Of a stretch of DNA of 64,000 bases, positions 11,072-45,490 are shown in pieces. The translations under genes were made by a program, and so were the position numbers. The stretch covers positions 13,547-77,546 of the forward strand of contig CAYWRH010000003.1 of assembly GCA_964460435.1 (NCBI GenBank), read 5' to 3'. Below the pieces are notes generated by a model. That model saw nothing but the letters and a program-made list of their open reading frames with translations, searched no databases and had not been told where the DNA came from. This stretch comes from an uncultured Desulfatiglans sp. (GTDB lineage: Bacteria > Desulfobacterota > DSM-4660 > Desulfatiglandales > HGW-15). How positions within the stretch are numbered: position 1 is the stretch's first letter; each line of letters opens with the position of its first letter.

Positions 11072-11108
11072 ATCCTTTTCCTTTCCTTATATTAGTTATT
11101 ATCAGTCA

Positions 11109-11783: not shown

Positions 11784-11825
11784 GCCTATTCCCCTTTTTG
11801 AATAAGAGAGGTTTAAAGCCTGTTG

Positions 11826-13421: not shown

Positions 13422-13440
13422 TTTATATCCTGTTATTTTT

Positions 13441-13458
13441 TGCGTTATCGATAACGCA
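13441..13458. promoter_or_regulatory. LacI-type operator, perfect 18-bp palindrome TGCGTTATCGATAACGCA (copy 1)
   Basis: Exact palindrome directly downstream of the minus-strand -10 box and about 20 nt upstream of the kinase ATG. Confidence 0.7.
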
Positions 13459-13487
13459 ATATTATTAGAGGGCCCTGTTTTTGTCAA
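13459..13487 (-). promoter_or_regulatory. Sigma70-type promoter for the kinase-HAD-araA unit
   Basis: Read on the minus strand: TTGACA (13487-13482), 17 nt spacer, TAATAT (13464-13459). Confidence 0.55.
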
Positions 13488-13530
13488 TTATATCTTTTAG
13501 ATAGAGTAAATACCCTTCCGCTTAAAATCA

Positions 13531-13559
13531 TTGACACGAAAAATGAGAGATAATATAGT
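13531..13559 (+). promoter_or_regulatory. Sigma70-type promoter for the lacI-araD-GH51... unit
   Basis: TTGACA (13531-13536), 17 nt spacer, TATAGT (13554-13559). Confidence 0.55.
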
Positions 13560-13576
13560 GCGTTATCGATAACGCA
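13559..13576. promoter_or_regulatory. LacI-type operator, identical 18-bp palindrome TGCGTTATCGATAACGCA (copy 2)
   Basis: Exact second copy. It begins at the last base of the plus-strand -10 box, 118 bp centre-to-centre from copy 1. Confidence 0.7.
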
Positions 13577-13591
13577 TTGAGCGGAGATTTC

Positions 13592-14659: not shown

Positions 14660-14678
14660 TTCATGCAAAGGAGGAGAT

Positions 14679-15386: not shown

Positions 15387-15402
15387 CCAAAGGAGGGTCA
15401 TT

Positions 15403-17370: not shown

Positions 17371-17413
17371 CAAAGTCTGCACCAAGGTGACAGGCTTTGT
17401 TAATCTCATTTTT
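17367..17413 (+). terminator. Rho-independent terminator or attenuator between the two GH51 genes
   Basis: 13-bp stem TTAACAAAGTCTG (17367-17379) pairs with CAGGCTTTGTTAA (17391-17403). Loop is 11 nt, followed by TCTCATTTTT. The stop codon lies inside the 5' arm. Confidence 0.55.
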
Positions 17414-17434
17414 AAAAAACAATGAGAGGTAAAA

Positions 17435-18973: not shown

Positions 18974-18985
18974 AGGAGAATTATC

Positions 18986-20512
18986 ATGCTAAGAAGAGTA
19001 AGGGTTGAAAATGGTCTTGTAGAGGGTTTGCCTGCTGCTGACCCGCGTATTACATCATTCAAGGGCATCCCCTTTGCTGCCCCTCCGGTGGGTCAAAACC
19101 GCTGGAAGGCCCCCCAGCCGTTAAAGAACTGGGACGGTGTTCTATATGCCTTTAAATTTGCCCCCATCTCCATGCAGCATATCCCGGGTGAAGACCCTGA
19201 AATCATCTACACAAGGGAGTGGAATGTGGACACCTCCATTGAAATGGATGAAGACTCCCTGCATCTTAATGTCTGGACACCTGCGAAACGGGCGGATGAA
19301 AAGCTGCCTGTGTTTGTCTGGTATTTTGGAGGGGGTCTTCAGGAGGGAAATACCGCTGAGATGGAGTTTGACGGCGAGCGCATTGCAAGGCGCGGCATTG
19401 TTGTTGTTACAATCAATTACAGGCTGAATGTATTTGGTTTCATGTGCCACCCTGAGATTACAAAAGAAGCCCCTGATGCGCCGGCCAACTTCGGATTTCT
19501 TGATCAGCAGTTTGGTACACGCTGGGTAAAGCATAATATAGCCGCCTTTGGAGGGGACCCTGATAACATAACCATAGGGGGACAATCAGCAGGGGGCGGA
19601 AGCGTTATGGCGCAGGTTACCTCTCCCTCAAACAAGGGCCTGTTTCATAAGGCCATTGTGGACAGCGGTCTTACGATGACTGCCTATCCGGGAACCCTTT
19701 TCCACAAGGAAAAGAACCTGGCAGAGGCTGAACAGGCCGGCATAGATTTCTTTAAATTCCTTGGCGTATCTTCCCTTAAAGAGGCACGCAATCTGGATGC
19801 AGTATACTTAAGGGACAAAATGGTGGAATACAGGGCATTCTGGGGTCCTGTAATAGATAATAAATTTTATGTTGGCGATGCCAATGAGCTGTTCATGGCA
19901 AATAAATGTGAGCTTGTCCCCATGATGTTCGGACACACTGCAACAGAGTTTCCTGACAGGCCATTAGTCAAGTCGGTTAAGGAGTTTGAAAACTTTGCAC
20001 GGGATGCCTATGGATCAGATGCAGATGAATTTCTTGGGTTATGCAGATCAGAGACCGGGAGCATCTCTGAAATGCTTTATAAGGCAACTGTGAGCCATCT
20101 TGAGTACTCCATTCGGCTTATTGGAAAGGCAAAAAAACGAACAGGCGATAAGACCCCCATATATTACTGGGTGTTCAACGCTGAGATACCGGGCTGGGAT
20201 AACCCGGGGGCATTCCATTCGGTTGATCTATGGTTCTTTTTCGAGACCCTTGCCAAGTGCTGGAGACCCTTTGTTGGCAAGCACTATGACCTGGCGCGTA
20301 AAATGTGTAATTACTGGGCCAACTTTATCAAAAGCGGGAACCCCAACGGAAAGGATGCGGACGGAACAGAGATGCCTATATGGCGCCCATTTACTGAAGA
20401 TGACCCTAACAGGATATGTTTCTATGATGAGGTATGTGCTGATAACAGAGGGCCGGATGACCTGATGAAATTCTTGATGAGGCAATATTTAAAAAAACAG
20501 AAAGGGTGTTAA
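18986..20512 (+). CDS. Type-B carboxylesterase, no signal peptide (cytoplasmic)
   Basis: Blocks: FKGIPFAAPPVGQNRW, EDSLHLNVWTP, VFVWYFGGG, elbow GGQSAGG. Confidence 0.85.
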   Translation: MLRRVRVENGLVEGLPAADPRITSFKGIPFAAPPVGQNRWKAPQPLKNWDGVLYAFKFAPISMQHIPGEDPEIIYTREWNVDTSIEMDEDSLHLNVWTPAKRADEKLPVFVWYFGGGLQEGNTAEMEFDGERIARRGIVVVTINYRLNVFGFMCHPEITKEAPDAPANFGFLDQQFGTRWVKHNIAAFGGDPDNITIGGQSAGGGSVMAQVTSPSNKGLFHKAIVDSGLTMTAYPGTLFHKEKNLAEAEQAGIDFFKFLGVSSLKEARNLDAVYLRDKMVEYRAFWGPVIDNKFYVGDANELFMANKCELVPMMFGHTATEFPDRPLVKSVKEFENFARDAYGSDADEFLGLCRSETGSISEMLYKATVSHLEYSIRLIGKAKKRTGDKTPIYYWVFNAEIPGWDNPGAFHSVDLWFFFETLAKCWRPFVGKHYDLARKMCNYWANFIKSGNPNGKDADGTEMPIWRPFTEDDPNRICFYDEVCADNRGPDDLMKFLMRQYLKKQKGC

Positions 20513-20548
20513 CTATACAATTTTAGGTCGTAAGGGGAAGAGATATAA

Positions 20549-21637
20549 ATGTCAGAGATATTTAAACCGTTACAGATAAACAGTCTAATTATAAAAAACC
20601 GTTTTGTTCGTTCAGCAACAGTGGATAACCTTGGTGAAAACCAGGTGGCAACAGAGGCTCAGCTCAATTTTTACAGGGAGCTTGCAAGGGGCGGGGTCGG
20701 GCTCATCATTTCAAGCGGGCTATTCCCGAGCCTTGACGGCTGGGCTGCACCGGGTCAGCTCGGTATCCATACAGATGAAATGATACCATCCCTTAAGAAA
20801 ATAACCGACACTGTGCATGCAAATGGCGGTAAGATAGCAGCACAGCTCATGCATGCAGGCTGGTTCGGTAACCCGGGCCTGTGCGGTTTTCAGACGGTTG
20901 GCCCATCCGAGACAGTCAATCCGGCTAATAATCTCAAAGTAAGAGGGCTCTCTTCAGATGAGGTTGAGGAAAAAATTGATCAGTTTGTGAAGGCAGGGGC
21001 AAGGGCAAAAGAGGCCGGGTTTGACGGGGTGCAGATTCATGCAGCCCACGGCTGGCTTGTAAGCGCATTCCTCTCGCCTGTTACAAATAAAAGGAATGAT
21101 AAATGGGGCGGATCTGCTTCAAACAGGGCAAGGTTTGTGATAAAGATAACTGAGGGGCTGCGAAAGGCCACAGGGCCTGATTACCCCATCCTGATCAAGC
21201 TTGGAATCAGGGAATATCATCCTGAAGGTAAAAGTGCGCAGGAGGGGATTAATTCCGCCAGGATGTTTATTGATGCGGGCATGGATGCAATAGAGGTAAG
21301 CGAGGGTGTCGAAGAGATACCCTTTAACCATATCAGGCCAAATACAATGATCCCCTACTATGCTGACGAATGCAAAAAGGCAAAAGAGGCCATATCAAAG
21401 CCTGTAATACTGGTCGGCGGAATGAGAAACCTTTCTGATATGGAAAAGGCAGTGGATGAGGGGATAGCGGATGCAATATCAATGTGCAGGCCATTTATCA
21501 TGGATCAGCATATTGTTAAAAAATTCAGAGAGGGATTGTCAAAGAGATCCTTATGTACATCCTGCAACAAATGCATACAGACAATGCAGGAGAGAAACCT
21601 GCATTGTACATTTAACTCAGGATTGATTAATTTTTAA
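20549..21637 (+). CDS. Old Yellow Enzyme-family NADH:flavin oxidoreductase with C-terminal Cys cluster
   Basis: Blocks: KNRFVRSAT, AAQLMHAG, FDGVQIHAAHGWLVSAFLSP, NKRNDKWGGS. C-terminus CTSCNKCIQTMQERNLHC (C-x2-C-x2-C-x10-C). Confidence 0.8.
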   Translation: MSEIFKPLQINSLIIKNRFVRSATVDNLGENQVATEAQLNFYRELARGGVGLIISSGLFPSLDGWAAPGQLGIHTDEMIPSLKKITDTVHANGGKIAAQLMHAGWFGNPGLCGFQTVGPSETVNPANNLKVRGLSSDEVEEKIDQFVKAGARAKEAGFDGVQIHAAHGWLVSAFLSPVTNKRNDKWGGSASNRARFVIKITEGLRKATGPDYPILIKLGIREYHPEGKSAQEGINSARMFIDAGMDAIEVSEGVEEIPFNHIRPNTMIPYYADECKKAKEAISKPVILVGGMRNLSDMEKAVDEGIADAISMCRPFIMDQHIVKKFREGLSKRSLCTSCNKCIQTMQERNLHCTFNSGLINF

Positions 21638-21663
21638 ACATCTTTTCTAAAAGGAGATTTAAC

Positions 21664-23304
21664 ATGAAAATTAAACATTCAACCTGGCTGGCAAGCATAC
21701 TGTTTATTTTTTTCATAACCTTTGCATGTGATTCGCCGCCTGATAAAAATCAGGTTAAAGAGAGCAGCGCCCCTGATGTTAAGGAAGAGGTAAAGGCGGC
21801 GCCTGAGGTTACGACAAAGGTTGATGTAACCGGCGGAACAATTGAAGGTATTGAGCAGGATGGAATTTTAACCTATAAAGGTATCCCCTTTGCAGCGCCG
21901 CCTGTGGGAGAGTTGCGCTGGAAGGCCCCTGCCCCTGTGCAGCCCTGGACAGGCGTTAAAAAGGCAGACACCTTCTGTAATGCCTGCATGCAGGCTGCAA
22001 ACGCTATGGGCAACACGGCACCGGTGAGTGAAGACTGCCTCTACCTTAATGTATGGACCCCGGCTAAAAAGAGGGATGAAAGGCTGCCTGTTATATACTG
22101 GGTGCATGGCGGCGGTTACAGCGGAGGCTCTACCAGCACACCCATGTATGATGGCATTGGTTTTGCCAAAAAGGGCGTGGTTATGGTAAGTGTTGCCTAC
22201 AGACTGGGGCCATTCGGGTTTCTTGCACACCCTGAATTAAGCATGGAGAGCGGGAACGGTTCAGGCAATTATGGAATACTTGACATGGTACAGGGCCTGA
22301 AATGGGTAAAGGACAATATCGCAAATTTCGGCGGAGACCCTGGCAATGTCACCATATTCGGCCATTCAGCCGGCGGAGCAGCCATAAGCCTGCTTGCAGC
22401 CACCCCTCTTACAAAGGGGCTTTTTCACAGGGCCATCTGCATGAGCGGGGGATCGTTTACACCCCTTATGACAGAGAATCAGGCAGGCATTGGTCTGGGG
22501 CTCCCCACACTCAAACTAGCAGAATCAAACGGCGAACAGTTTTTAAAGGAGCTTAATGTAGCTGACATTAAAGCTGCCCGGGCATTGAGCGCAGATGATA
22601 TCCAGAATAAACTTGCTGGCGGAATGGGCGGAATGAGATTCAGGCCGGTGGCAGACGGTTATGTTATATCAAATGACCTTTACTCCCTGTACATGGAAGG
22701 CAAATTTAATGATACTCCTGTATTACTGGGCCATACATCCGATGAAATGGGAGCCTTCGGCGGAAACCAGAATATTACAAAGGCCGATTTTGTCAAACAG
22801 ATCAAGGAGCAGTATGGCAAAGGGGCAGAATTAATCCTCGGTGCATACCCCCATTCAACAGATGCAGAGGCAACAAGGGCATCAAAGGATATCAGGAATG
22901 ACAGCTCCTTCTCATGGAACACCTGGACATGGTCACGCCTTCAGTCACAGAAAGGGAAAAACAGTGCCTTTCAGTATTATTTTGATTATCATCCGAATGC
23001 GCCGGATGCAGGTTCAGGACATGGAAGCGATGTGCCATACGCATTTCAGACACTTGCTAACCCAGCCCAGCCGCCGAAAGAAGAGGATATGAAACTCTCT
23101 GATATGATAAGCACATACTGGGTAAACTTTGCGAAAACCGGCAATCCTAACGGCCAGGGGCTGCCTGAATGGCCGGCTTTCAGTGAGGCTGATCAAAAGG
23201 TGATGGTGTTTGATGGAGCGCCCGGGGCAAGGGTTTTGCCGGTTCTTGAAAGGTTGAAGGTAATGGATGTCTATTTTTCAGGGCTTAGGGGAAAGAGTGA
23301 ATAG
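21664..23304 (+). CDS. Exported type-B carboxylesterase
   Basis: Signal peptide ending FITFAC, so possibly a lipoprotein. Blocks: YKGIPFAAPPVGELRW, EDCLYLNVWTP, IYWVHGGGY, elbow FGHSAGG. Confidence 0.85.
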   Translation: MKIKHSTWLASILFIFFITFACDSPPDKNQVKESSAPDVKEEVKAAPEVTTKVDVTGGTIEGIEQDGILTYKGIPFAAPPVGELRWKAPAPVQPWTGVKKADTFCNACMQAANAMGNTAPVSEDCLYLNVWTPAKKRDERLPVIYWVHGGGYSGGSTSTPMYDGIGFAKKGVVMVSVAYRLGPFGFLAHPELSMESGNGSGNYGILDMVQGLKWVKDNIANFGGDPGNVTIFGHSAGGAAISLLAATPLTKGLFHRAICMSGGSFTPLMTENQAGIGLGLPTLKLAESNGEQFLKELNVADIKAARALSADDIQNKLAGGMGGMRFRPVADGYVISNDLYSLYMEGKFNDTPVLLGHTSDEMGAFGGNQNITKADFVKQIKEQYGKGAELILGAYPHSTDAEATRASKDIRNDSSFSWNTWTWSRLQSQKGKNSAFQYYFDYHPNAPDAGSGHGSDVPYAFQTLANPAQPPKEEDMKLSDMISTYWVNFAKTGNPNGQGLPEWPAFSEADQKVMVFDGAPGARVLPVLERLKVMDVYFSGLRGKSE

Positions 23305-23336
23305 GAAGTCATCATTTATATAGAGGAGAAAAGATC

Positions 23337-24818
23337 ATGAAACCATCAAAGGGTATCGGCATAACCCGCAGGGAGTTTGTAAAAAGCACAGCCATAACAG
23401 GAGCCGCCACAATAGCTTTAGGCGCAGGAGGAATGCTGTTTCCTGTGTCAGCAAGTGCGGCGGCGAGGCAGGCTGAAATTAACGGCAAGACAATCAGGGA
23501 GGCTGCCCGCGAGACAAAGGTATGCCGCACTGCCGATGTTGTGGTGGTTGGCGGCGGGCCTGGCGGTATTGGGGCGGCCCTGTCAGCAGCAAGGAACGGG
23601 GCTGATACAGTCCTTATTGAAAGGTATGAACATCTGGGCGGCATGGGAACAGGGGGTCTCGTCACCATTATCCCCGCCATGACTGATGTTTCAGGCAGGC
23701 AGGTGATAGCCGGAATTACCCAGGAATGGATAGAGAGGCTGGATAAACGGGATGGGGCAGACTACCCGAAAAGGGAGCACTGGGGCTCAACCGATAAAAA
23801 GCTTGTTGAATATTACAATAACCGCTCCTTTTTCTATGCGACAGGCAACAGGGTAGGATATTCCGCACATATCGATGCAGAGTTATCAAAGTGTCTGTTT
23901 CAGGACATGGTGGAAGAGGCCAAAATTAAGACCTATCTTCACTCCTGGGGAACAGAGCCCATAATGGAGGGCAACAGGGCCAGGGGCGTAATCTTTGAAA
24001 GCAAATCAGGCAGACAGGCGGTGCTCGCCAAGATCGTAATCGATTCAACAGGCGATGGCGACCTGCTGCCTTATGCCGGCGCAGAGTTTGAAACCCATAT
24101 TGAACGCACAATGAGGATTGCAAACCTCTCCTTTTCATACTGGATAGATAATGTTGATCTGAAAAAATATACGGAATATAAAAAATCAAATGCCAAGGAA
24201 CTTACCGAAAAGATGCGTGAACTGAAGAAGCTTGGCGGGACAGGAGGTTTTCTTACAAGCAACCTGAAAAACCAGGAGAATGTGGTCTGGTGCTTTCCAC
24301 GGTATGCAAACACTTGTCAGTATGATGTGGAGGAGCTTACACGGGTTGAGTTTTTAGGCCGCAAGGAGATGCTTATAACACACGATTTTTATAAAAAGCA
24401 TATTCCCGGTTTTGAAAAGAGCTTTATAGTCCTTTCAAATATGCAGCTTGGCACCCGCGGCGGAAGGAGGGTTATAGGAGATTATGTTGTAAAAAAAGAG
24501 GATATGAACTTAAAGACCCCTTTTAATGACACCATCGCCATATTCCCTAACCTGGATGATAAGAACCCCTTAATGTATATGCCCTATCGCTGCCTGATAC
24601 CGCGCAATGTGGATAATATGCTTGTTGCATGCAGGGCATTTTCGTCAGATGCGGTTATAAATGATGCCTTTAATCTGATACACCACTGTGTCTCCCTCGG
24701 ACAGGCAGCCGGGGCAGCGGCAGCACAGGCAATAAATGCAGGTGTTGATGTCAGGAAGGTTGACATCAGGGCTTTGCAGGCTACCCTTAAGAAGCAGGGG
24801 GTGGTTCTGCCCGGTTAG
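23337..24818 (+). CDS. Tat-exported FAD-dependent oxidoreductase (FAD_oxidored-like), paralog 1
   Basis: Twin-arginine signal GITRREFVKSTAITGAATIALGAG. Dinucleotide fold ADVVVVGGGPGGIGAALSAARNGADTVLIERYEHLGGMGTGG. Confidence 0.75.
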   Translation: MKPSKGIGITRREFVKSTAITGAATIALGAGGMLFPVSASAAARQAEINGKTIREAARETKVCRTADVVVVGGGPGGIGAALSAARNGADTVLIERYEHLGGMGTGGLVTIIPAMTDVSGRQVIAGITQEWIERLDKRDGADYPKREHWGSTDKKLVEYYNNRSFFYATGNRVGYSAHIDAELSKCLFQDMVEEAKIKTYLHSWGTEPIMEGNRARGVIFESKSGRQAVLAKIVIDSTGDGDLLPYAGAEFETHIERTMRIANLSFSYWIDNVDLKKYTEYKKSNAKELTEKMRELKKLGGTGGFLTSNLKNQENVVWCFPRYANTCQYDVEELTRVEFLGRKEMLITHDFYKKHIPGFEKSFIVLSNMQLGTRGGRRVIGDYVVKKEDMNLKTPFNDTIAIFPNLDDKNPLMYMPYRCLIPRNVDNMLVACRAFSSDAVINDAFNLIHHCVSLGQAAGAAAAQAINAGVDVRKVDIRALQATLKKQGVVLPG

Positions 24819-24877
24819 TTAATATACAGCTTTAAGCTGTCTACCAAATCTTATTTTTTTTAAGAGGAGTTTTGATT

Positions 24878-26368
24878 ATGAATTCTCAGAATAAAAAGGG
24901 GATAACACGGCGTGAATTTTTCAGAAATACAACTATTACAGGGGCAGCAATTGCTGCCGGAGCTGGCGGCATGCTGCTTGATGCACAGGCGAGCTCAGCC
25001 CAGCCCGCCGGTATTACAGAAAAGACAATCAAAGAGGCTGCCCGTGAGACAAAGGTATGCCGGACAGCCGATGTTGTGGTTGTAGGCGGCGGCCCCGGAG
25101 GTATTGCTGCAGCGCTGGCAGCAGCGAGGAGCGGCGCTGATACTGTTCTTATAGAAAGATATGAGCACCTTGGCGGCATGGGCACAGGCGGGCTAGTCAC
25201 CATTATACCCAATTTAAGCGACTTCAGCGGCAAACAGCAGATAGCAGGTATTACGCAGGAGTGGATAGACCGGCTTAACAGAAGGGAGGCGGCAGATTAC
25301 CCTAAAAAAGAGCACTGGGGCTCGGATGATAAAAAGCTTGTTGCCTATTATCAGAACCGCTCCTTTTTTAATATTCGTGAGCAGCGGGTAATATACTCCG
25401 TGCACATAGATGCCGAGATATCAAAATGCATTCTGCAGGAGATGATGGAGGAGGCCAAGGTAAAGACATACCTGCATTCCTGGGGCACAGAGCCCATAAT
25501 GGAGGGCAACAGGGCCAGGGGCGTTATCTTTGAGAGCAAGTCAGGAAGGCAGGCAGTGCTTGCAAAGATTGTGATAGACTCCACTGGAGACGGAGACCTT
25601 CTTCCATATGCAGGGGCCGATTTCAAGATGGACATTGAACGCACACTGAGGATCGCAAACCTCTCATTTTCATACTGGATAGACAATGTTGACCTTAAAA
25701 AATATGAGGATTACAAATCATCCCATGCCAAGGAACTGACAGATCATATGCGCGAGGTCAGAAAGGCCGGGGGGCATGGCGGATTTCTTACAAGCAACCT
25801 GAAAAACCAGGAGCATGTGGTATGGTGCTTCCCCCGCTATGCAAATAAAAGCCAGGTGGATGTGGAGGAGCTTACGCGTGTTGAGTTTCAGGGCCGGAAA
25901 GATATGCTCATAACTCACGATTATTTCAAAAAGAATATCCCCGGCTTTGAAAAGAGCTTTATCGTGCTTTCAAACCCGCAGCTCGGAACCCGCGGGGCAA
26001 GACGCGTTGTTGGAGAATATGTGGTTAGCGAAAAGGACATGAACACTGATACCCCCTTCCCTGACACTGTTGCAGTATTCCCTGATGTGGATCGCGGCAA
26101 GAACTCTATAAAATACCCTGTGACATACATGCCATACCGCTGCCTGATACCGGCAAAGGTGGACAATATGCTGGTTGCATGCAGGGCATTTGCATCTGAG
26201 ATGATTGTAAATGAGTACTTTAACCTGATACCCCATTGTATTGCCCTTGGCGAGGCAGCAGGGGTTGCTGCGGCCCAGGCCATATCCGGAAACGTGGACT
26301 TAAGAAAGATTGATATAAAGGAATTGCAGGCAACCCTTAAAAAGAGGGGTGTAATCCTTCCGGGATAG
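24878..26368 (+). CDS. Tat-exported FAD-dependent oxidoreductase, paralog 2
   Basis: ATG at 24878 lies 8 nt after AAGAGGAG; the track TTG is at 24872. Tat signal GITRREFFRNTTITGAAIAAGAG. Long blocks are identical to paralog 1, for example KTYLHSWGTEPIMEGNRARGVIFESKSGRQAVLAKIVIDSTGDGDLLPYAGA. Confidence 0.75.
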   Translation: MNSQNKKGITRREFFRNTTITGAAIAAGAGGMLLDAQASSAQPAGITEKTIKEAARETKVCRTADVVVVGGGPGGIAAALAAARSGADTVLIERYEHLGGMGTGGLVTIIPNLSDFSGKQQIAGITQEWIDRLNRREAADYPKKEHWGSDDKKLVAYYQNRSFFNIREQRVIYSVHIDAEISKCILQEMMEEAKVKTYLHSWGTEPIMEGNRARGVIFESKSGRQAVLAKIVIDSTGDGDLLPYAGADFKMDIERTLRIANLSFSYWIDNVDLKKYEDYKSSHAKELTDHMREVRKAGGHGGFLTSNLKNQEHVVWCFPRYANKSQVDVEELTRVEFQGRKDMLITHDYFKKNIPGFEKSFIVLSNPQLGTRGARRVVGEYVVSEKDMNTDTPFPDTVAVFPDVDRGKNSIKYPVTYMPYRCLIPAKVDNMLVACRAFASEMIVNEYFNLIPHCIALGEAAGVAAAQAISGNVDLRKIDIKELQATLKKRGVILPG

Positions 26369-26384
26369 CTATGAGGAGTATAGA

Positions 26385-27638
26385 ATGAGAAAATCGGTTA
26401 ATAACCTCTGGGCCGTGCTTGGTCCGGGCATTTTATACACTGCCGCTGCAGTGGGGGTGTCACATCTGGTCTACTCCACACGAGCAGGGGCGGTGTATGG
26501 ACTGGCATTGATCCCTTTCATTTTGTTTTTCTGTCTGATAAAGTATCCGGCCATTCGTTTCGGCAATGAGTTTGCCGCTGCTACAGGCCGGTCACTTGTG
26601 GACAGCTATATCAGCTTTGGAAGGTATACCCTCTGGCTTTTTGGCCTCTCCCAGATATTGAGCATGGTGTTTATTACAGCGGCAATAGGGCTTGTTACCA
26701 CTGCCCTTATCAATGCAGTATTAGGGGTTTCATTCAGCATGCTTTTTGATAACGGCATCCTTCTTGTAATTTGTGCGGTAATCCTGGTCACAGGGCGCTA
26801 CCATTTGCTTGAGCGGATGACTAAAGGCATAGTGATCCTGTTCACGCTCCTGATCATGCTGACCACTGTCAGCGCCCTGTTCAAGCTGAGACTTAACGGG
26901 GTGTCACCCGGCCATTTCAGATTTGATGAGGCAACCGTGCTTTATCTGGTAGCAATGGCAGGGTATATGCCCACGCCCATCGATGCATCTGTGCTGCAAT
27001 CCTTATGGGCACGCGCAAAGGCCAGGGACTTTGGCCGCGAGGTTACTGTGAGCGAGGCAAGGCTGGATTTCAATATCGGTTTTATCAACACCTTTGTGCT
27101 GGCCGTATGCTTTGTGCTTCTGGGCATGGTAGTAATGTACTGTAATGGCATAACGCCTGAAAATAATTCTATTGGTTTTGCCAATCAGGTTATCAGACTT
27201 TTTACAGAACTTGTCGGTAAATGGGCCTATTACCCGATAGGCATAGCAGCCATTACTGTCATGTTTTCAACCCTCATCACAGTGATGGATGGATATCCCC
27301 GTGTGATAGAGGCGCTTGTTATCGAGATGAGGCCTATGTCAGGCGGTAAATTTCTGGGCAGGCGTTTCTATGACTGGGTCATGCTGTTTCTGGTTATTGC
27401 AAGTTTGATTGTTATGGCCACATTGATGAAAAGCTTTGAGGCATTTATTGACATGACATCCGCTATTGCCTTTATTGTGGGGCCGTTTATCTCATGGCTT
27501 AACCATCGCAGTATGTTCGGAGGCCAGGTAAATTCTGATGATCAGCCAGGGGCTGTAATCCGTATATGGAGCATAATCGGGTTAATTATGCAGACCCTCA
27601 TATCGGTTTACTATATCTATCTTAGAATTGCAGGCTGA
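26385..27638 (+). CDS. Polytopic membrane transporter, Nramp-fold-like, metal-site motifs not conserved
   Basis: About 11 hydrophobic helices. N-terminus LGPGILYTAAAVGVSHLVYSTRAGAVYG parallels the Nramp LGPGFL..DPGN..AGA.(F/Y)G block but lacks DPGN. GYMPTPIDAS sits where Nramp has MPHN. The family call is tentative. Confidence 0.45.
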   Translation: MRKSVNNLWAVLGPGILYTAAAVGVSHLVYSTRAGAVYGLALIPFILFFCLIKYPAIRFGNEFAAATGRSLVDSYISFGRYTLWLFGLSQILSMVFITAAIGLVTTALINAVLGVSFSMLFDNGILLVICAVILVTGRYHLLERMTKGIVILFTLLIMLTTVSALFKLRLNGVSPGHFRFDEATVLYLVAMAGYMPTPIDASVLQSLWARAKARDFGREVTVSEARLDFNIGFINTFVLAVCFVLLGMVVMYCNGITPENNSIGFANQVIRLFTELVGKWAYYPIGIAAITVMFSTLITVMDGYPRVIEALVIEMRPMSGGKFLGRRFYDWVMLFLVIASLIVMATLMKSFEAFIDMTSAIAFIVGPFISWLNHRSMFGGQVNSDDQPGAVIRIWSIIGLIMQTLISVYYIYLRIAG

Positions 27639-27661
27639 TATGGCTTTGAAGGTTTTAATAA

Positions 27662-28879
27662 ATGATTAGAGAAAGACAAAAGATGCGCCTGTATGTGAGG
27701 CTTATATGCCTTATGATTACAATAGTATTACTGCTGCCATTACCTTTCTGGGTTCACAGCTCAAGGATATTTGTGCAGACAAGCCCCTTTGTCACAATAT
27801 GCACAATAATTTCAGGAGGGGCATTATGGCTGGGTTCAATCCTGGGCATTCTTTTTTCTATAATATCCCTGTTCAGAAAAAGGTTTTTCTGCCGCTATGT
27901 TTGCCCTGTCGGCCTGATACTTGACACTGTTTCAGGTATCAGACCCTCTGTAAAGCCCTGGTGGAAAGGCTCTCCCCCAATAGGGAGATACATAGTGTGG
28001 CTGACCCTTGCAGGTGCAATAATCGGATATCCCCTTTTTTTATGGATGGACCCTCTGGTCTTTTTAAACAGCGCATTTAGTGTCTACAGGGCATCGGATA
28101 TATCTGCTGTTTCAGCTTCAATTTCAGGAATGGTGATACTCCTTTTGCTTGCGATCACTTCCGGGAGCCTCTGGTGCGCCCGTGTGTGCCCTCTGAGCGC
28201 AACGCAGGATATTCTTGATGATGCAGCCTCTCTTTTAAGGAGATTTATAAAAAGAACAGAAACAGATGCAGAGGCAAAAAATAGATACAAGGGGCTTTTA
28301 CCATCCACACGCAGGGCGTTTATCGCAATTGCAGCAGGAGCGGGGCTGAGCATCCTGGCGAAAAAGGCGGCACATGCAGAATCAGGAGATCATCTTCTGC
28401 GTCCTCCCGGCGCAGTCAGGGAGGATGACTTCACAGCCCTTTGCCTGAGATGCGGTAACTGTATCCGCACCTGCCCCTCACGGATCATACATCCTGATAC
28501 AGGTGGCTTTGGTCTTCTCGGGTTTTTCACACCGGTAATCAGGTTTAACAGGGAATACTGCAATGAAAAATGCAACGCCTGCACAAAGGCATGCCCCAGC
28601 GGGGCTTTGCAGAGCCTTGATCTGGAGGAGAAGAACAGATATCTGATAGGGCTTGCAAAGGTGGACAAGTCATTGTGCCTGTGGGGCATGAGTGACTGCA
28701 ATACCTGTATACGCGCCTGCCCCTTTGAAGCAATAAAGATTACATGGAATGAAGAGGCATATGAATCATATCCTGCTGTTGACCCTAATAAGTGCAATGG
28801 CTGCGGCGCATGTGAGGCATTTTGCCCGACAGGAGATGTCAAGGCAATAAGGGTATGGAAACTAAAAAAAATAAACTAA
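27662..28879 (+). CDS. Membrane polyferredoxin, NapH/NosH-like N-half fused to a 4-cluster ferredoxin C-half
   Basis: Two CX3CP motifs (CRYVCP, CARVCP) among TM helices. Internal Tat-signal-like segment STRRAFIAIAAGAGLSILAKKAAHA. Then four Cys clusters: CLRCGNCIRTCP, CNEKCNACTKACP, CLWGMSDCNTCIRACP, CNGCGACEAFCP. Confidence 0.7.
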   Translation: MIRERQKMRLYVRLICLMITIVLLLPLPFWVHSSRIFVQTSPFVTICTIISGGALWLGSILGILFSIISLFRKRFFCRYVCPVGLILDTVSGIRPSVKPWWKGSPPIGRYIVWLTLAGAIIGYPLFLWMDPLVFLNSAFSVYRASDISAVSASISGMVILLLLAITSGSLWCARVCPLSATQDILDDAASLLRRFIKRTETDAEAKNRYKGLLPSTRRAFIAIAAGAGLSILAKKAAHAESGDHLLRPPGAVREDDFTALCLRCGNCIRTCPSRIIHPDTGGFGLLGFFTPVIRFNREYCNEKCNACTKACPSGALQSLDLEEKNRYLIGLAKVDKSLCLWGMSDCNTCIRACPFEAIKITWNEEAYESYPAVDPNKCNGCGACEAFCPTGDVKAIRVWKLKKIN

Positions 28880-28901
28880 TTATTTCAGGAGGTATCCCCA
28901 G

Positions 28902-29861
28902 ATGATAAAACAAATAAAGAGTGTTATGACAATTCTTGCGGCCATGTTGATAGTGTCAGGCTGTACAGGATCAGATAAAGATGACGGCACTATTACTGTC
29001 GGATTCTCACAGATAGGCGCTGAAAGCGCATGGAGGGTTGCCAATACAGAATCCATTCAGAGCGAGGCAGCAAAAAGGCCCAATATCAAACTGATCTTCT
29101 CTGATGCACAGCAGAAGCAGGAAAACCAGATAAAGGCTATTCGGAACTTTATTGCCCAGGGTGTGGATGTTATCGCATTTTCACCTGTTGTTGAAACCGG
29201 ATTTGAGGCTGTGCTCAGGGAGGCCAAAGATGCGGGTATCCCCGTTATCCTGATTGACCGTGCTGTAGATGTGCAGGATGATTCCCTATGGGTGACATTC
29301 ATGGGGTCAGACTTTGTTGAGGAGGGGCGCAGGGCCGCACGCTGGCTTGTTGAAAAGGGCTACACAGATGTAAAGATAGTGGAACTGCAGGGCACAGTGG
29401 GTTCAGCGCCTGCCATAGACAGGAAAAAGGGGTTTGAGGAGGTTATAAAGGAGCATCCCGGAATGGTGGTAATCAAAAGCCAGAGCGGCAATTTTACCAG
29501 GTCCGGCGGCAAAGAGATAATGGAGGCATTTCTTAAAACCGAAGGAAAGAATATCAATGTGCTCTTTTCACATAATGATGATATGGCCATAGGAGCCATA
29601 CAGGCGATAGAAGAATATGGACTGGCTCCGGGCAAGGACATTATTATTGTCTCAATTGACGCTGTGCGCGGCGCCTTTGAGGCCATGATAGAGGGAAAGC
29701 TTAACTGTACGGTTGAATGCAGCCCGCTCCTTGGGCCGCAGCTCTTTGATGCAGTGGAGACAATCGTTAAGGGTAAACCTGTTCCAAAAAAGATAGTAAC
29801 AGAGGAGGGTGTATTCCCGCAGGAGGTTGCGGCTGAGGTGATAGGCAGCAGGAAGTATTAG
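28902..29861 (+). CDS. ytfQ: ABC transporter periplasmic furanose-binding protein (YtfQ-like), lipoprotein
   Basis: Lipobox LIVSGC. Blocks closely match my recollection of E. coli YtfQ: VGFSQIGAESAWR, DAQQKQENQIKAIRNFIAQGVD, VELQGTVGSAPAIDRKKGFEE, SQSGNFTRSGGKEIMEAF, HNDDMAIGAIQAI. Confidence 0.8.
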   Translation: MIKQIKSVMTILAAMLIVSGCTGSDKDDGTITVGFSQIGAESAWRVANTESIQSEAAKRPNIKLIFSDAQQKQENQIKAIRNFIAQGVDVIAFSPVVETGFEAVLREAKDAGIPVILIDRAVDVQDDSLWVTFMGSDFVEEGRRAARWLVEKGYTDVKIVELQGTVGSAPAIDRKKGFEEVIKEHPGMVVIKSQSGNFTRSGGKEIMEAFLKTEGKNINVLFSHNDDMAIGAIQAIEEYGLAPGKDIIIVSIDAVRGAFEAMIEGKLNCTVECSPLLGPQLFDAVETIVKGKPVPKKIVTEEGVFPQEVAAEVIGSRKY

Positions 29862-29863
29862 TA

Positions 29864-31369
29864 ATGTCTGAATTGCTTGAAATAAGGGGCTTGAGCAGGA
29901 GCTTTCCGGGTGTTAATGCCCTTGACGCTGTGGATTTCACCCTGAGGAGTGGTGAGATCCATGCGCTCATGGGCGAGAACGGGGCTGGAAAATCAACCCT
30001 GATTAAGGTGCTTACAGGCGTCCACAAAAAAGAGAGCGGCTCCATTAAACTGTCCGGCAAAGGGTTTGAGGCATCCTCCCCCATGGACGCTGCCCGTAAA
30101 GGGATCAGCACCGTATACCAGGAGATAAATCTGCTTCCCAATCTTTCTATAGCAGAAAATATCTATATAGGCCGCCAGCCCATGAAAGGCGCCAGGATTG
30201 ACTGGAAAGCCATTAACATGAATGCCGGAGATGTTCTTGCCAGACTGGATCTTGAAATAGATGTAACTCTCCCCCTCTCCTCCTGCTCCACCGCTATCCA
30301 GCAGATGGTGGCAATTGCAAGGGCGCTTGATATCAGGGCAAAAATCCTGATACTGGATGAACCAACATCCAGCCTGGACATGGCAGAATGTAAAAACCTG
30401 TTCAGGATAATGAAGAGGCTTAAGGATGAGGGCATGGGCATCATCTTCATTACGCACTTTCTTGACCAGGTGTATGAGACATCCGACCGTATCACCGTCT
30501 TAAGGAACGGGCAGTTTATCGGTGAATACAAGACAGCAGAGCTTCCACGCTTCAAGCTGATATCAAAGATGCTGGGCAAAGAGCTGGAACAGGAGATGGT
30601 GTCGTCAGGCAAAAGACCGGGCGACAAATCTTCACGAAAAGAGCCCTTCATCACCCTGAATAATGTGGAAGAAAAGGGCGTTATATCTCCGATTGATCTT
30701 GAGATTTGCGAAGGTGAGGTGCTCGGCCTTGCCGGTCTGCTCGGTTCAGGCCGCACAGAGGTGGCAAAACTCATGTTCGGCATTAACAGGCCCACTTCAG
30801 GAACCATCATGATAGATAAACAACCTGTTGCCATTCACTCACCCAAGGATGCCATATCTCATTCCATCGCATTTTGTCCTGAAGACAGAAAAACTGAAGG
30901 TATTATCCCGGATCTTACTGTAAGGGAGAATATTATTCTGCCTCTTCAGGCCAGAAGAGGTTTCTTCAGGGGAATATCCCGAAGGGAGCAGGATAGAATA
31001 ACAGACCGTTATATAGAGCTGCTAAAGATAAAGGTATCTAGCAGGGAGCAGAAGGCCGGAACCCTGAGCGGCGGAAACCAGCAGAAGGTGATCCTTGCCC
31101 GCTGGATGGCCATGAACCCGCGTCTACTGATACTTGATGAACCAACGCGCGGCATAGATGTAGGAGCAAAGGCAGAGATTGAAAAATTGATCTTCAGATT
31201 AATGGAGGAGGGTCGCAGCATACTCTTTATATCATCGGAGCTTGAAGAGATCGTTCATACATGCAGCCGTGTTGCAATACTGAAGGAGAGAAAAAAGGTG
31301 GGAGAGATATCTGGTGAAAACATATCTGAAGAGAAAATCATGACAGCGCTTGCGCAGGAAGGTACTTAA
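29864..31369 (+). CDS. ytfR: Sugar ABC transporter ATPase, duplicated ABC domains (YtfR-like)
   Basis: 501 aa. Walker A GENGAGKST. Signatures LSSCSTAIQQ and LSGGNQQKV. Walker B ILILDEPTS and LLILDEPTRGIDV. Confidence 0.85.
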   Translation: MSELLEIRGLSRSFPGVNALDAVDFTLRSGEIHALMGENGAGKSTLIKVLTGVHKKESGSIKLSGKGFEASSPMDAARKGISTVYQEINLLPNLSIAENIYIGRQPMKGARIDWKAINMNAGDVLARLDLEIDVTLPLSSCSTAIQQMVAIARALDIRAKILILDEPTSSLDMAECKNLFRIMKRLKDEGMGIIFITHFLDQVYETSDRITVLRNGQFIGEYKTAELPRFKLISKMLGKELEQEMVSSGKRPGDKSSRKEPFITLNNVEEKGVISPIDLEICEGEVLGLAGLLGSGRTEVAKLMFGINRPTSGTIMIDKQPVAIHSPKDAISHSIAFCPEDRKTEGIIPDLTVRENIILPLQARRGFFRGISRREQDRITDRYIELLKIKVSSREQKAGTLSGGNQQKVILARWMAMNPRLLILDEPTRGIDVGAKAEIEKLIFRLMEEGRSILFISSELEEIVHTCSRVAILKERKKVGEISGENISEEKIMTALAQEGT

Positions 31370-31377
31370 GATAGATT

Positions 31378-32436
31378 ATGGGCACTGTAAAGAAAAAGAT
31401 TTCTCTTATTAATCCAGTTTCCTCTGAACTGGGCATCATCTATCCCCTGCTGGCCTTTATAGCTATACTTTTGTTCAATCTTGTTTTCACAGAGGGGTTT
31501 TTCCACATTGAGATAAAGAACGGCCACCTCTTCGGTTCACTTATAGATATATTCAACAGGGGCGCGCCGGTCATACTTGTCACAATCGGTATGACTCTGG
31601 TTTATGCTACCGGCGGTGTTGACCTCTCTGTCGGGGCAATCATTGCTATATCAGGCGCCCTTGCAGCGCAGCTTATCCGGCCTGATTATGTTAAAGGCAT
31701 CCTTGAATATGGTGATCAGACCTCTTTAATCACAGTGCTTCTTGTGCCCCTTGTCCTTTCTGTCATCCTTGGCCTCTGGAACGGCTTTCTTGTGGCCTAC
31801 ATAGGTGTGCAGCCCATCATCGCGACACTTATACTCATGACTGTGGGCAGGGGTATAGCCCAGCTTATCACACACGGGCAGATCATTGTTTTTGAACACG
31901 CTTCATTCCAGTTCATAGGAAGCGGCTTCTTCCTGGGCCTCCCCTTTCCTGTTATCATGGTGATTCTCCTCTTTGTTCTCACATGGGCGCTTACCAGAAA
32001 AACCACACTTGGTCTTTTCATTGAGGCATCAGGCGCAAATGGTCTTGCAAGCCGTTATATGGGCATACCCGTAAGGATGATAACAACCTTTACCTACGGG
32101 TTTTCCGGCTTCTGCGCTGGCCTCGCAGGATTGATCATTACAGCGGATATAAAGGCTGCGGATGCCAACAATGCAGGGATATTCATGGAACTTGACGCCA
32201 TTGCTGCTGTTATTATCGGGGGGACAATAAACGGCGGACGTTTTTCAATGGCAGGCGCTGTAATCGGCGCCCTTATTATCCAGTCACTGACCACAACCAT
32301 TATTACACGCGGTGTCCCGCCCCAGGTCGTTCTGGTGTTCAAGGCAGTAATAATCATCATTGTTGCGCTGATCCAGTCTAGAAAGCTTCGTGACCAGCTC
32401 TCCCTTATTTTACATTCAGGAGACAGATCATCATGA
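31378..32436 (+). CDS. ytfT: Sugar ABC transporter permease (YtfT-like)
   Basis: Polytopic. Ribose/galactofuranose-type permease blocks: GGVDLSVGAIIAISGA, TLGLFIEASGAN. Order matches ytfQRT-yjfF. Confidence 0.8.
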   Translation: MGTVKKKISLINPVSSELGIIYPLLAFIAILLFNLVFTEGFFHIEIKNGHLFGSLIDIFNRGAPVILVTIGMTLVYATGGVDLSVGAIIAISGALAAQLIRPDYVKGILEYGDQTSLITVLLVPLVLSVILGLWNGFLVAYIGVQPIIATLILMTVGRGIAQLITHGQIIVFEHASFQFIGSGFFLGLPFPVIMVILLFVLTWALTRKTTLGLFIEASGANGLASRYMGIPVRMITTFTYGFSGFCAGLAGLIITADIKAADANNAGIFMELDAIAAVIIGGTINGGRFSMAGAVIGALIIQSLTTTIITRGVPPQVVLVFKAVIIIIVALIQSRKLRDQLSLILHSGDRSS

Positions 32437-33419
32437 GATTCCGGCTGAGTCAGAAAAACATACCGATCCTTTCAACCTTTCTCGTATTCATACTGCTCTA
32501 TGTCGCTGGCGCATTTGCATACAAAGGTTTTTTTTCTCTCAGGGTTTTCATTAACCTTTTTATAGATAATGCATTTGTCGGCATCATTGCGGTTGGGATG
32601 ACCTTTGTTATCATATCAGGAGGTATTGATCTTTCTGTCGGCGCCCTTGTTGCATTTACCGGCGTGTTGAGCGCCAACCTGCTTTCACATACAGAGATGC
32701 CGCCATTTATGGTTATTATTATCTGTCTCTTCTGCGGTGCAGCGCTGGGCTTTTGCATGGGATGCCTGATACACCTTCTTGAAATGCCGCCGTTTCTTGT
32801 AACCCTTGTGGGTATGTTCCTTGCCCGGGGGCTATCATTCGTGATAAGCCTTGACTCTGTGCCCATCCGCAATGAACTGTTTCTTGCTATCTCAAAGGCA
32901 TCTATTCCTCTGGGAAGTGGAATCAAGATGCCTCTCTATGCAGTCAGCTTTATTATAATGGCCATTCTTGGCGCATATATCCTGCACTATACACGTTTCG
33001 GCAGAAATATTTATGCCATTGGGGACAATGAGAAATCGGCTATCCTCATGGGGCTTCCTGTTGGAAAGACCAAAATCCTTATATACACCATTAACAGCAC
33101 CATCTGTGCAGCAGGCGGGCTGGTCTATTCCCTCTATACCCTCGCAGGATATCCGCTTGCAGGGACAGGGCTTGAACTGGATGTAATTACCGCCGTTGTT
33201 ATCGGCGGAACCCTTTTAACAGGCGGAGTGGGCTTTATAGAGGGGACTGTAATAGGTGTCATGATACTGGGGCTCATCCAGACAATCATCACATTTCAGG
33301 GAAACCTGAGCACCTGGTGGACAAAGGTCTTTATCGGTATCCTTCTGTGCATCTTTATCCTTTTGCAGCGATATCTTACAGCAGGAAAGATTAAATCCAT
33401 TAAAAGGGACAATCAGTAA
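32433..33419 (+). CDS. yjfF: Sugar ABC transporter permease (YjfF-like)
   Basis: ATGA overlap with the previous gene. Blocks: GGIDLSVGALVAF, RFGRNIYAIGDNEKSA. Confidence 0.8.
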   Translation: MRFRLSQKNIPILSTFLVFILLYVAGAFAYKGFFSLRVFINLFIDNAFVGIIAVGMTFVIISGGIDLSVGALVAFTGVLSANLLSHTEMPPFMVIIICLFCGAALGFCMGCLIHLLEMPPFLVTLVGMFLARGLSFVISLDSVPIRNELFLAISKASIPLGSGIKMPLYAVSFIIMAILGAYILHYTRFGRNIYAIGDNEKSAILMGLPVGKTKILIYTINSTICAAGGLVYSLYTLAGYPLAGTGLELDVITAVVIGGTLLTGGVGFIEGTVIGVMILGLIQTIITFQGNLSTWWTKVFIGILLCIFILLQRYLTAGKIKSIKRDNQ

Positions 33420-33599: not shown

Positions 33600-34991
<1,392 letters not shown>

Positions 34992-37470: not shown

Positions 37471-37529
37471 TAAGCAGGGGTTACAAGCAGGAGAGAAATG
37501 TATGCTATAATCGTTATGGGAGGTTTAAT

Positions 37530-39461: not shown

Positions 39462-39471
39462 GGAGATCATC

Positions 39472-45314: not shown

Positions 45315-45490
45315 TGTAAGAATGCAACAAGAGTGTCTGGAAAATGTTCCGTAGCGCTAATTGCTTAATATGCAGATTCGAGTTGAGTATATTTTATGCC
45401 TTGCAGTATACACTCCATGACTGTCTGTAATGGCGACAATGCCTCTAAAGTTAGCCCCATGAGGTCTGAAAACCGGAAGGAGATGAGGAT

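Follow-up and report, generated by a model that had tools for sequence, protein, structure and literature searches.

NapGH-type proteins are quinol dehydrogenases that feed periplasmic reductases (PMC5449189). In NapGH and NosGH, a membrane NapH core with two CX3CP motifs and a periplasmic four-cluster ferredoxin supply a reductase exported by the Tat (twin-arginine translocation) route, and menaquinol is the presumed donor. In this study, we analysed a four-gene cassette in a 64,000-nt stretch of DNA from an uncultured Desulfatiglans sp. (hereafter the window; coordinates are those of its plus strand). The cassette encodes two paralogous flavoproteins, designated FAD1 and FAD2, a permease, and a polyferredoxin in which the NapH and NapG parts are joined in one chain (NapHG, gene 4). 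It differs from NapGH and NosGH in that the two subunits are fused, the terminal enzyme would be a flavin adenine dinucleotide (FAD) protein instead of a molybdo- or copper enzyme, and the scores lie far below the equivalog cut-offs. We propose, at a probability of roughly 45%, that the cassette specifies a quinol-fed periplasmic reductase in which NapHG would be the conduit to two substrate-specialised flavoproteins, with hydroxycinnamate-type enoates as the favoured substrates.

The hallmarks of polytopic proteins that are inserted jointly by Sec and Tat have been defined by Tooke et al. 2017 (PMC5449189). The same study included the NapH-NapG fusion "polyferredoxin" of the delta proteobacterium MLMS-1 (Q1NSB0), in which the region of the fifth transmembrane domain (TMD5) exports reporters in a Tat-dependent manner; membrane insertion was studied, and redox partners were not addressed. 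Gene 4 resembles the MLMS-1 protein in the fusion of a NapH core to a NapG four-cluster domain, in the twin-arginine motif placed before a last, weakly hydrophobic TMD that is followed by positive charges, and in its deltaproteobacterial lineage. However, gene 4 is shorter (TMD5 at residues 219-237 versus 338-359), and the cytoplasmic 2x[4Fe-4S] domain found in NapH and in the MLMS-1 polyferredoxin is missing from it. No partner was named for the MLMS-1 protein, whereas conserved linkage points to a Tat-exported PF12831 flavoprotein as the partner of gene 4. RdhC/PceC-type proteins of organohalide respiration (PMC5928378) likewise combine a NapH-like CX3CP membrane protein with a neighbouring Tat-exported catabolic reductase and a proposed link to the quinone pool. 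RdhC, which is partnered by a corrinoid Fe-S dehalogenase, differs from gene 4 in having an FMN-binding domain and no NapG-type polyferredoxin.

Among flavin reductases, a signal peptide marks the respiratory enzymes, and the cytosolic non-respiratory relatives are without it (bioRxiv 10.1101/2022.12.26.521950). The signal-peptide flavoenzymes Fcc3, UrdA and CrdA-D/CirA-D are comparable to FAD1 and FAD2 in having cytosolic non-respiratory relatives and co-occurring paralogues. These paralogues differ in substrate range, their substrates include plant hydroxycinnamates, and gut bacteria possess several paralogous cinnamate reductases with distinct specificities (bioRxiv 10.1101/2022.12.26.521950). 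Unlike FAD1 and FAD2, they are FAD_binding_2 proteins with FMN-binding or haem domains, and they receive electrons via cytochromes or flavinylated domains and not from a NapGH-type polyferredoxin. A literature search gave no description of the cassette or of an exported PF12831 flavoprotein complex. The dual Sec/Tat NapH-NapG fusion type, of which gene 4 is a shorter variant, is already known, as is the overall logic shared with NapGH, NosGH and RdhC. The exported PF12831 flavoprotein as terminal enzyme, and hence the whole complex, appears to be undescribed.

Flavoproteins and polyferredoxin of the cassette

A preliminary description of this DNA had noted four consecutive plus-strand genes. 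We confirmed all four open reading frames (ORFs; Table 1); the gaps between them, given earlier as 16-53 nt, are 16-59 nt with the start of gene 2 at ATG 24878. This is more probably the true start of FAD2, because AGGAG lies 8 nt before ATG 24878 but merely 2 nt before TTG 24872, and because a 496-aa gene was called on JGI metagenome contig 3300021561, which is identical to the window over the cassette. The four genes are real, with thousands of homologues and an order that is kept across many genomes. Full synteny and protein identities of 80-95% were seen with the nearest genomes, which are metagenome-assembled genomes (MAGs) under the labels uncultured Desulfatiglans sp. and Deltaproteobacteria bacterium.

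The two paralogous FAD oxidoreductases of ~495 aa with twin-arginine signals, also reported earlier, were borne out by full-length matches to the PF12831 family (FAD_oxidored). The matches (E 1e-82 at residues 67-484 of FAD1; E 5e-84 for FAD2) scored 279 and 283 bits against a cut-off of 27 and covered profile positions 1-416 of 416. FAD1 and FAD2 are 75-76% identical, and a dinucleotide-binding motif, VVVVGGGPGG, was found at residues 68-77. Matches to other FAD families were confined to this motif region (residues 67-102), including that to PF00890, the FAD_binding_2 family of fumarate, urocanate and cinnamate reductases. The scores against the geranylgeranyl reductase family TIGR02032 were 28.8 and 35.7 bits, below its cut-off of 158.8.

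The N-terminus of FAD1 reads ITRREFVK...ASA, with a signal peptide at about residues 1-42 and the catalytic domain beginning at about residue 50, and that of FAD2 reads ITRREFFR...AQA. Both agree with the Tat consensus, that is, S/T-R-R-x-F-L-K, a moderately hydrophobic h-region, and an AxA site. R11, R12, and F14 of FAD1 were invariant among 25 homologues. Export had been put forward as a point on which the earlier interpretation would stand or fall; the RR pair was invariant in all module-linked homologues, and the first ~48 residues were absent from the nearest cytoplasmic relatives. The predicted export of FAD1 and FAD2 via Tat is thus well supported. Neither flavoprotein sequence contains a Cys motif for an Fe-S cluster, so that electrons would go directly between a NapG-type cluster and FAD, as in the FixX-FixC pair. 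R374, R377, R378, R418, and R433 were invariant in both the exported and the cytoplasmic members of the family, a set that would suit a carboxylate substrate.

An AlphaFold2 model of FAD1 was built from a diverse alignment of 74 sequences and reached a predicted local distance difference test (pLDDT) score of 87 and a predicted TM-score (pTM) of 0.86, whereas 25 close homologues alone gave a pLDDT of 40.6. Residues 1-47 were disordered in the model, as expected for a signal peptide. All that Foldseek found in the PDB were generic single-FAD (GR2-type) folds with TM-scores of ~0.40, namely geranylgeranyl reductase (3oz2), flavin halogenases, PHBH-type monooxygenases, FixC (7koe_C), flavocytochrome c3, and urocanate reductase. 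Geranylgeranyl reductase, which reduces C=C bonds, and FixC, which exchanges electrons with its [4Fe-4S] ferredoxin partner FixX, were the best matches and share the GR2-type fold with FAD1. However, their identity to it was 13-15% at this TM-score, and they are cytoplasmic or membrane-peripheral, whereas FAD1 and FAD2 are predicted to be exported. A phmmer search of PDB sequences matched the flavoprotein at the Rossmann motif only (residues 50-105) and gave no match for the Nramp-like protein.

Gene 4 had been described as NapH-like, with two CX3CP motifs and four Cys clusters. Both features were found, but the protein is a NapH-NapG fusion and the clusters are not NapH's own cytoplasmic ones. 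NCBIfam models matched NapH at residues 40-191 (E 3e-14) and NapG at residues 202-398 (E 1e-27), and Pfam matched Fer4_5 twice together with Fer4 families. The NapH part has four transmembrane (TM) segments, with CRYVCP at residue 77 after TM2 and CARVCP at residue 172 after TM4, both predicted to face the cytoplasm. The match to NapH stopped at profile position 216 of 286, ahead of the C-terminal cytoplasmic 2x[4Fe-4S] domain, and no Cys motifs were present between residues 177 and 260. An internal twin-arginine motif, TRRAFI, follows at residue 216 between the NapH and NapG parts, and four ferredoxin-type Cys clusters lie at residues 261, 300, 339, and 378 (span 261-388), as in NapG/MauM. 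The NapG scores were 96.8 bits against an equivalog cut-off of 269 (NF007012) and 82.4 against 179 (TIGR00397). No molybdopterin, mau, nap, or nos genes were found within the operon.

TMD5 is weakly hydrophobic (Kyte-Doolittle 1.52, compared with 2.31, 2.10, and 2.38 for TM1, TM2, and TM4) and is followed by KK, and the N-terminus of the protein is positively charged. Gene 4 therefore displays the hallmarks of dual Sec/Tat polytopic polyferredoxins (Tooke et al. 2017, PMC5449189). Every full-length NapHG homologue retained the internal RR pair along with its Cys clusters and the two CX3CP motifs, and in all homologues TRRxFI stood ahead of a weakly hydrophobic helix with KK behind it. Since gene 4 is of the dual Sec/Tat type, its four Fe-S clusters should be periplasmic; this localisation is predicted from the motifs and by analogy with the MLMS-1 protein.

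Conservation of the pairing and its gene neighbourhoods

To survey the linkage, one genome per species was scanned with the NapHG protein, which gave 32 loci (loci are L-numbered below), 28 of them with enough upstream sequence. The loci belonged to Desulfatiglans/Desulfatiglandales, Desulfobacterales, Acidobacteriota (including Bryobacteraceae and Solibacteraceae), and one Kiritimatiellia. When the window's proteins were mapped onto the loci and fragments and high-GC loci were inspected, a PF12831 gene was directly 5' of the NapHG gene in 27 of the 28 evaluable loci, in some with the Nramp-like gene alone between them. The single exception was the Kiritimatiellia locus, in which the contig edge lies just past the gene. 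Linkage to the polyferredoxin, on which the preliminary description had also made its proposal depend, was thus very strong and spanned two phyla. The motif [ST/N]RRxF was present in every module-linked flavoprotein, and non-adjacent paralogues in the same loci were without it. It was kept even in the distant pairs of L036 and L037, in which the flavoprotein was 29-31% and NapHG 35-41% identical.

The layout in Desulfatiglans-like genomes was FAD1-FAD2-(Nramp-like)-NapHG. Acidobacteriota had single FAD1-NapHG or FAD2-NapHG units, and one MAG had both at separate loci (L020 and L027). These layouts suggest that the flavoprotein-NapHG pairing is functional and old. They also led to the rejection of an obligate FAD1/FAD2 heterodimer. 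FAD1 and FAD2 would instead be alternative catalytic subunits, because single-type units occur and both types stand at separate loci in one MAG. At L034 (9905-11216), the NapHG gene was broken into three ORFs by frameshifts or assembly errors, and at L040 (11567-11962) a 131-aa NapHG remnant lay between the flavoprotein and a transporter gene of the major facilitator superfamily (MFS). These two loci suggest that the polyferredoxin partner occasionally decays.

A word-indexed search with the flavoprotein gave 3,819 proteins at E <= 1e-10. The best 120 of these were 67-92% identical and ~490-500 aa long, except for one 391-aa fragment, and came from sources named Thermodesulfobacteriota or Desulfobacteraceae. 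When 1.84 billion cluster representatives were searched exhaustively, 12,370 relatives were returned. The nearest representatives outside the exported clade were <=50% identical and ~450 aa long, aligned from query residue ~49 only, and had N-termini without a signal peptide; a profile search found cytoplasmic relatives of up to 66% identity in Chloroflexota and Dehalococcoidia. In a quick neighbour-joining tree, the Tat-bearing flavoproteins were monophyletic within cytoplasmic relatives, which is consistent with an exported clade derived from cytoplasmic ancestors. The tree was split into FAD1-type and FAD2-type orthogroups, each with Desulfatiglans-like and Acidobacteriota members. Flavoprotein identity between phyla reached 82-83%, which suggests that these genes were transferred laterally, are under very strong constraint, or both. 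Between the Acidobacteriota loci L018-L028 and the window, the flavoproteins were 79-83% identical, an unusually high value across phyla, and the NapHG partners 59-66%. The neighbourhoods of the cytoplasmic relatives in Chloroflexota and Dehalococcoidia were also considered as a guide to the substrate, and were rejected as too heterogeneous, an S15 CocE-type hydrolase being their sole recurrent feature.

Neighbouring genes were then counted by clustering the ORFs of the window and ~31 non-redundant loci and annotating the cluster representatives. In these descriptive counts, the recurrent families were COesterase (12 loci), PF00756 esterase (11), the Nramp-like permease (9), an AprA-like flavoprotein and a DUF8021-like exported protein (8 each), UGSC/p413, URO-D-like proteins and a PETase/DLH-like hydrolase (7 each), GH51, S15 CocE/NonD-type hydrolase and aromatic-acid/H+ symporter-type MFS (6 each, the GH51 loci including two of Acidobacteriota), and GDSL lipase (5). 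Most of the neighbouring hydrolases had signal peptides or lipoboxes. The gene most often immediately preceding the cassette in Desulfatiglans-like loci was a lipoprotein-type COesterase, and a COesterase was directly upstream of FAD1 in L003, L008, L009, L010, L011, and L017. In L040 and L041, the MFS genes that adjoin the cassette scored 323-360 bits to the aromatic acid/H+ symporter family TIGR00895, and L041 also had a tannase and a DAPG/phloretin-hydrolase-family gene. Overall, the Acidobacteriota and Desulfobacterales loci contained esterases, tannase, a DAPG/phloretin-hydrolase-family gene, AFOR, URO-D-like genes, and MFS transporters.

The setting of the window was not general. L003 had the same GH51/esterase/old yellow enzyme (OYE) genes and was without the Nramp-like gene. 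In L001 and L002, from genomes of 5.8-7.4 Mb, the four-gene cassette stood amid TonB-dependent receptors, IclR regulators, and an MFS transporter and was followed by a glycyl radical enzyme, a flavodoxin-FeS protein, and an AprA-like flavoprotein. The ATP-binding cassette (ABC) sugar system and OYE were each found in 4 loci, only in the window's own synteny group. OYE was rejected as a conserved partner for this reason, and the earlier suggestion of an added cytoplasmic ene-reductase is confined to that group. Although it had been placed inside a glycan-utilisation operon, the cassette is portable and does not intrinsically belong to such an operon. A survey for co-occurring glycan-active genes had been recommended; exported esterases proved to be the commonest neighbours and GH51 recurred, but glycan genes were not the shared theme. 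Descriptively, that theme is exported ester hydrolysis and aromatic-acid handling, to which arabinofuranosidases are often added.

A cytoplasmic trio was observed near the cassette in 8 loci, consisting of an EFR1-family flavodoxin/Fe-S protein, an AprA-/fumarate-reductase-like flavoprotein (643 aa), and a 105-aa 2x[4Fe-4S] ferredoxin (window 36514-39789; L001 18423-21455; L007 8708-10958; L030 7134-9467). It lies directly 3' of the cassette in L001 and L007 and may be part of the same pathway. The window also encodes a glycyl radical enzyme at 41800-44202, for which the best match was the sulfopropanediol dehydratase HpsG (496 bits against a cut-off of 1000). The family-less proteins around it (40071-41780 and 44385-47215; p134, p413, p309/DUF8021-like, and UGSC) recur near the Acidobacteriota cassettes of L021 and L033, and the L001 cassette is trailed by a different glycyl radical enzyme.

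Proposed electron transfer and alternative explanations

In the proposed mechanism, FAD1 and FAD2 would take up FAD and fold in the cytoplasm and then be exported in the folded state by Tat. TM1-4 of NapHG, with the two CX3CP motifs, would be inserted by Sec, and TMD5 and the cluster domain would be moved by Tat to the periplasmic face. Menaquinol would be oxidised at the NapH core, and electrons would pass through the four [4Fe-4S] clusters to the FAD of either flavoprotein, where the flavin would reduce a periplasmic substrate. FAD1 and FAD2 would act as substrate-specialised catalytic subunits on one shared conduit. The candidate substrates are alpha,beta-unsaturated aromatic acids (hydroxycinnamates and related enoates or lactones) that would be freed by the nearby exported esterases and GH51 enzymes, in this window from arabinose-linked esters. 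The cassette would then operate as a respiratory or electron-sink reductase.

The cassette architecture and its periplasmic wiring are very probably as described. The reductive direction is slightly favoured, because of the NapGH/NosGH precedent, the signal-peptide split among flavin reductases, and the fold kinship to flavoproteins that reduce C=C bonds or are linked to ferredoxin. To our knowledge, every characterised NapGH, NosGH, and RdhC-type module runs from quinol to a periplasmic reductase, and menaquinol is thermodynamically able to reduce fumarate-type enoate C=C bonds. The hydroxycinnamate-type substrate is a doubtful assignment, drawn from the neighbourhood context and the precedent of paralogous cinnamate reductases. 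It had been the preferred candidate in the preliminary description, and it gained circumstantial support from the recurrence of exported esterases (including a feruloyl-esterase-like one), GH51, aromatic-acid/H+ symporters, and URO-D-like genes.

Several observations weigh against the proposed reductase. The NapH scores were 52.9 bits against a cut-off of 234 (NF007013) and 47.6 against 213 (TIGR02163), and with such scores and no cytoplasmic Fe-S domain of NapH, quinol oxidation is not assured. The direction is taken purely from analogy, and the same wiring could feed menaquinone from a periplasmic dehydrogenase. Known hydroxycinnamate, urocanate, and fumarate reductases belong to the other family, FAD_binding_2, with residues 67-102 as the only shared region. 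The adjacent aromatic-acid importers are easier to reconcile with breakdown of the acids than with release of a reduced respiratory end product. The esterase neighbours are of many families and could free many acids, alcohols, or lactones, and the neighbour counts carry no genome-background rate for esterase genes and hence do not amount to a statistical enrichment. No close solved structure was found for the flavoproteins in the PDB (best TM-score ~0.4), the exported PF12831 clade has no characterised member, and NCBIfam holds no model specific to it.

The alternative that survives best is unlikely, and it keeps the wiring and reverses the flow. Exported flavoprotein dehydrogenases would oxidise a released alcohol, phenolic side chain, or lactol and pass electrons through the NapG clusters and NapH to menaquinone and sulfate respiration. 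Nothing in the sequence sets the direction, and oxidising enzymes, for example proline dehydrogenase and amino-acid deaminase, are also among the fold relatives. Periplasmic flavoenzyme oxidation of phenolics is established in other anaerobes for p-cresol methylhydroxylase; however, the periplasmic flavoenzymes known to us that oxidise alcohols or sugars are of the GMC or VAO type and do not have the PF12831 fold. Aromatic-acid importers together with cytoplasmic AprA-like, ferredoxin, and glycyl-radical genes would fit a catabolic route with a periplasmic first step before uptake. The characterised NapGH, NosGH, and RdhC-type modules all act in the opposite sense, and the split between signal-peptide and cytosolic members mirrors that of respiratory reductases (bioRxiv 10.1101/2022.12.26.521950).

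It is less probable still that the polyferredoxin is not a quinol dehydrogenase at all. It could instead serve in maturation or reductive activation, or carry electrons from a cytoplasmic donor, while the flavoproteins would be protective enzymes that reduce quinones, nitroaromatics, or reactive plant phenolics with no energy conservation. The NapH part is divergent, truncated, without the cytoplasmic Fe-S domain, and sub-threshold, and detoxification would fit the phenolic-rich substrates implied by the tannase and esterase neighbours. We know of no defined electron-transfer role for the NapGH homologues MauM and MauN. However, the two CX3CP motifs and the four-helix NapH core are strictly conserved, and each cassette has a single polyferredoxin gene, tightly linked within the operon, which speaks for a stoichiometric partner.

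In a glycan-specific role, the flavoproteins would act oxidatively or reductively on arabinofuranose or arabino-oligosaccharides in the periplasm, ahead of import through the YtfQ-type furanose ABC transporter, and the module would be integral to arabinan or arabinoxylan utilisation. This role is very improbable: the window's long operon, with its LacI-family regulator, AraD, two exported GH51-like enzymes, furanose ABC genes, and paired palindromic operators, speaks for it, as do the GH51-like genes in the six loci counted above, but most cassettes have no sugar genes nearby (L001, with its TonB receptors, IclR, and glycyl radical enzyme; L039; L041; many Acidobacteriota), the ABC system is restricted as described, the cytoplasmic relatives occur in non-sugar settings, and Foldseek against the PDB gave no known sugar oxidoreductase with this fold. 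Sugar oxidation had earlier been considered equally possible, a view that the missing sugar genes in most module neighbourhoods do not bear out.

On the wider view, Tat-exported PF12831 proteins with NapHG may form an unrecognised class of quinol-dependent periplasmic respiratory reductases, by which Desulfatiglans-like sulfate reducers and Acidobacteriota would respire plant hydroxycinnamates, unsaturated acids, or lactones that they release themselves, with two ancient lineages (FAD1-type and FAD2-type) exchanged between phyla. This generalisation is speculative. If it were true, dual Sec/Tat polytopic polyferredoxins, so far only a membrane-insertion curiosity, would gain a physiological partner and role, and PF12831 would join the flavoenzyme families that serve as periplasmic respiratory reductases. 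Uncultured sediment Desulfatiglans and Acidobacteriota would use plant phenolic acids as electron acceptors beside or instead of sulfate, with a bearing on carbon and sulfur cycling and on the turnover of lignocellulose-derived aromatics in anoxic sediments. If gene 4 works as a quinol dehydrogenase, the cytoplasmic 2x[4Fe-4S] domain would be dispensable for electron transfer from quinol to the periplasm. Since the clade is large, uncharacterised, and tight, with 67-93% identity across phyla, a single biochemical assay would annotate many genes.

Operon, likely control region, and permease of the window

The cassette lies between GH51/esterase/OYE genes and a furanose ABC transporter, as described earlier, and these flanks were confirmed. 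The upstream genes encode a LacI-family regulator, AraD, two GH51-like arabinofuranosidases that bear signal peptides, a COesterase of the cytoplasm, OYE, and the lipoprotein COesterase (Table 1); downstream is the YtfQ-type furanose ABC transporter (E 1e-113). For the esterase at 33600-34943, the resemblance (E 8e-38) is to a bifunctional xylanase/feruloyl esterase, in its feruloyl-esterase domain.

Table 1. Positions of the cassette genes and of associated features in the window
Feature	Coordinates	Strand	Basis
FAD1, Tat-exported (predicted) PF12831 FAD-dependent oxidoreductase, 493 aa	23337..24818	+	Pfam, Tat motif, AlphaFold2
FAD2, paralogous Tat-exported (predicted) PF12831 oxidoreductase, 498 aa (496 aa from ATG 24878)	24872..26368	+	Pfam, TRREFFR motif
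NapH-NapG fusion polyferredoxin (NapHG), 405 aa; alternative start M8 at position 27683	27662..28879	+	NCBIfam, motifs
Divergent Nramp-related permease, 417 aa, ~11 hydrophobic/TM segments	26385..27638	+	Sub-threshold Nramp_1
Lipoprotein-type exported COesterase, directly 5' of FAD1	21664..23304	+	PF00135 E 1e-114; lipobox ...ITFAC
Likely control region of the 15-gene operon	13441..13576		Paired palindromes and promoter-like site

Fifteen genes from the LacI gene to an ABC permease (13577-33419, ~20 kb) lie on the plus strand with every gap <=64 nt. Two perfect copies of the 18-bp palindrome TGCGTTATCGATAACGCA were found at 13441-13458 and 13559-13576, and 0 of 100 shuffles gave two. They flank a strong promoter-like site, TTGACA-17-TATAGT, at 13531-13559 (11 of 12 matches) and bracket the promoter region of the divergent FGGY-kinase and LacI-regulator genes. 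The TGCGTTATCGATAACGCA pair probably represents LacI-family operators that control the cassette's 20-kb operon as well as the arabinose catabolic genes. A promoter/terminator scan gave no terminator-like sites between the operon genes; its site counts equalled the shuffled expectation, so that the scan shows only that nothing contradicts a single operon. The cassette is probably co-transcribed with the arabinoside utilisation genes in the source genome, because the genes share one strand with these short gaps and no terminator-like site, behind the promoter-like site and palindromes.

The window contains a full L-arabinose route (AraA, FGGY kinase, and AraD) and two exported GH51-like arabinofuranosidases at 9554-18973, in a sulfate-reducer lineage; a literature search gave no paper joining Desulfatiglans with arabinofuranosidase. 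Two of the COesterases are within the operon, and a third paralogue was found at 3883-5511 (542 aa, PF00135 E 9e-104), ~18 kb 5' of the cassette.

The third cassette gene had been called an Nramp-fold-like transporter. The distant relationship held, because relatives of 36-48% identity do carry PF01566, but the protein itself had no Pfam match and scored 42.5 bits with NCBIfam Nramp_1, below the cut-off of 50. Canonical Nramp proteins have the metal-binding motifs DPGN in TM1 and MPH in TM6. In the permease, an invariant GVSH replaces DPGN, and TM6 reads MPT(P). The permease is a relative of the Nramp (SLC11) family and not a canonical member. It is an optional member of the cassette, missing from L003, L012, and the Acidobacteriota cassettes. 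The GVSH and MPT(P) pattern was also found in Gammaproteobacteria and Myxococcota relatives that match PF01566, and this subfamily may not be a divalent-metal transporter.

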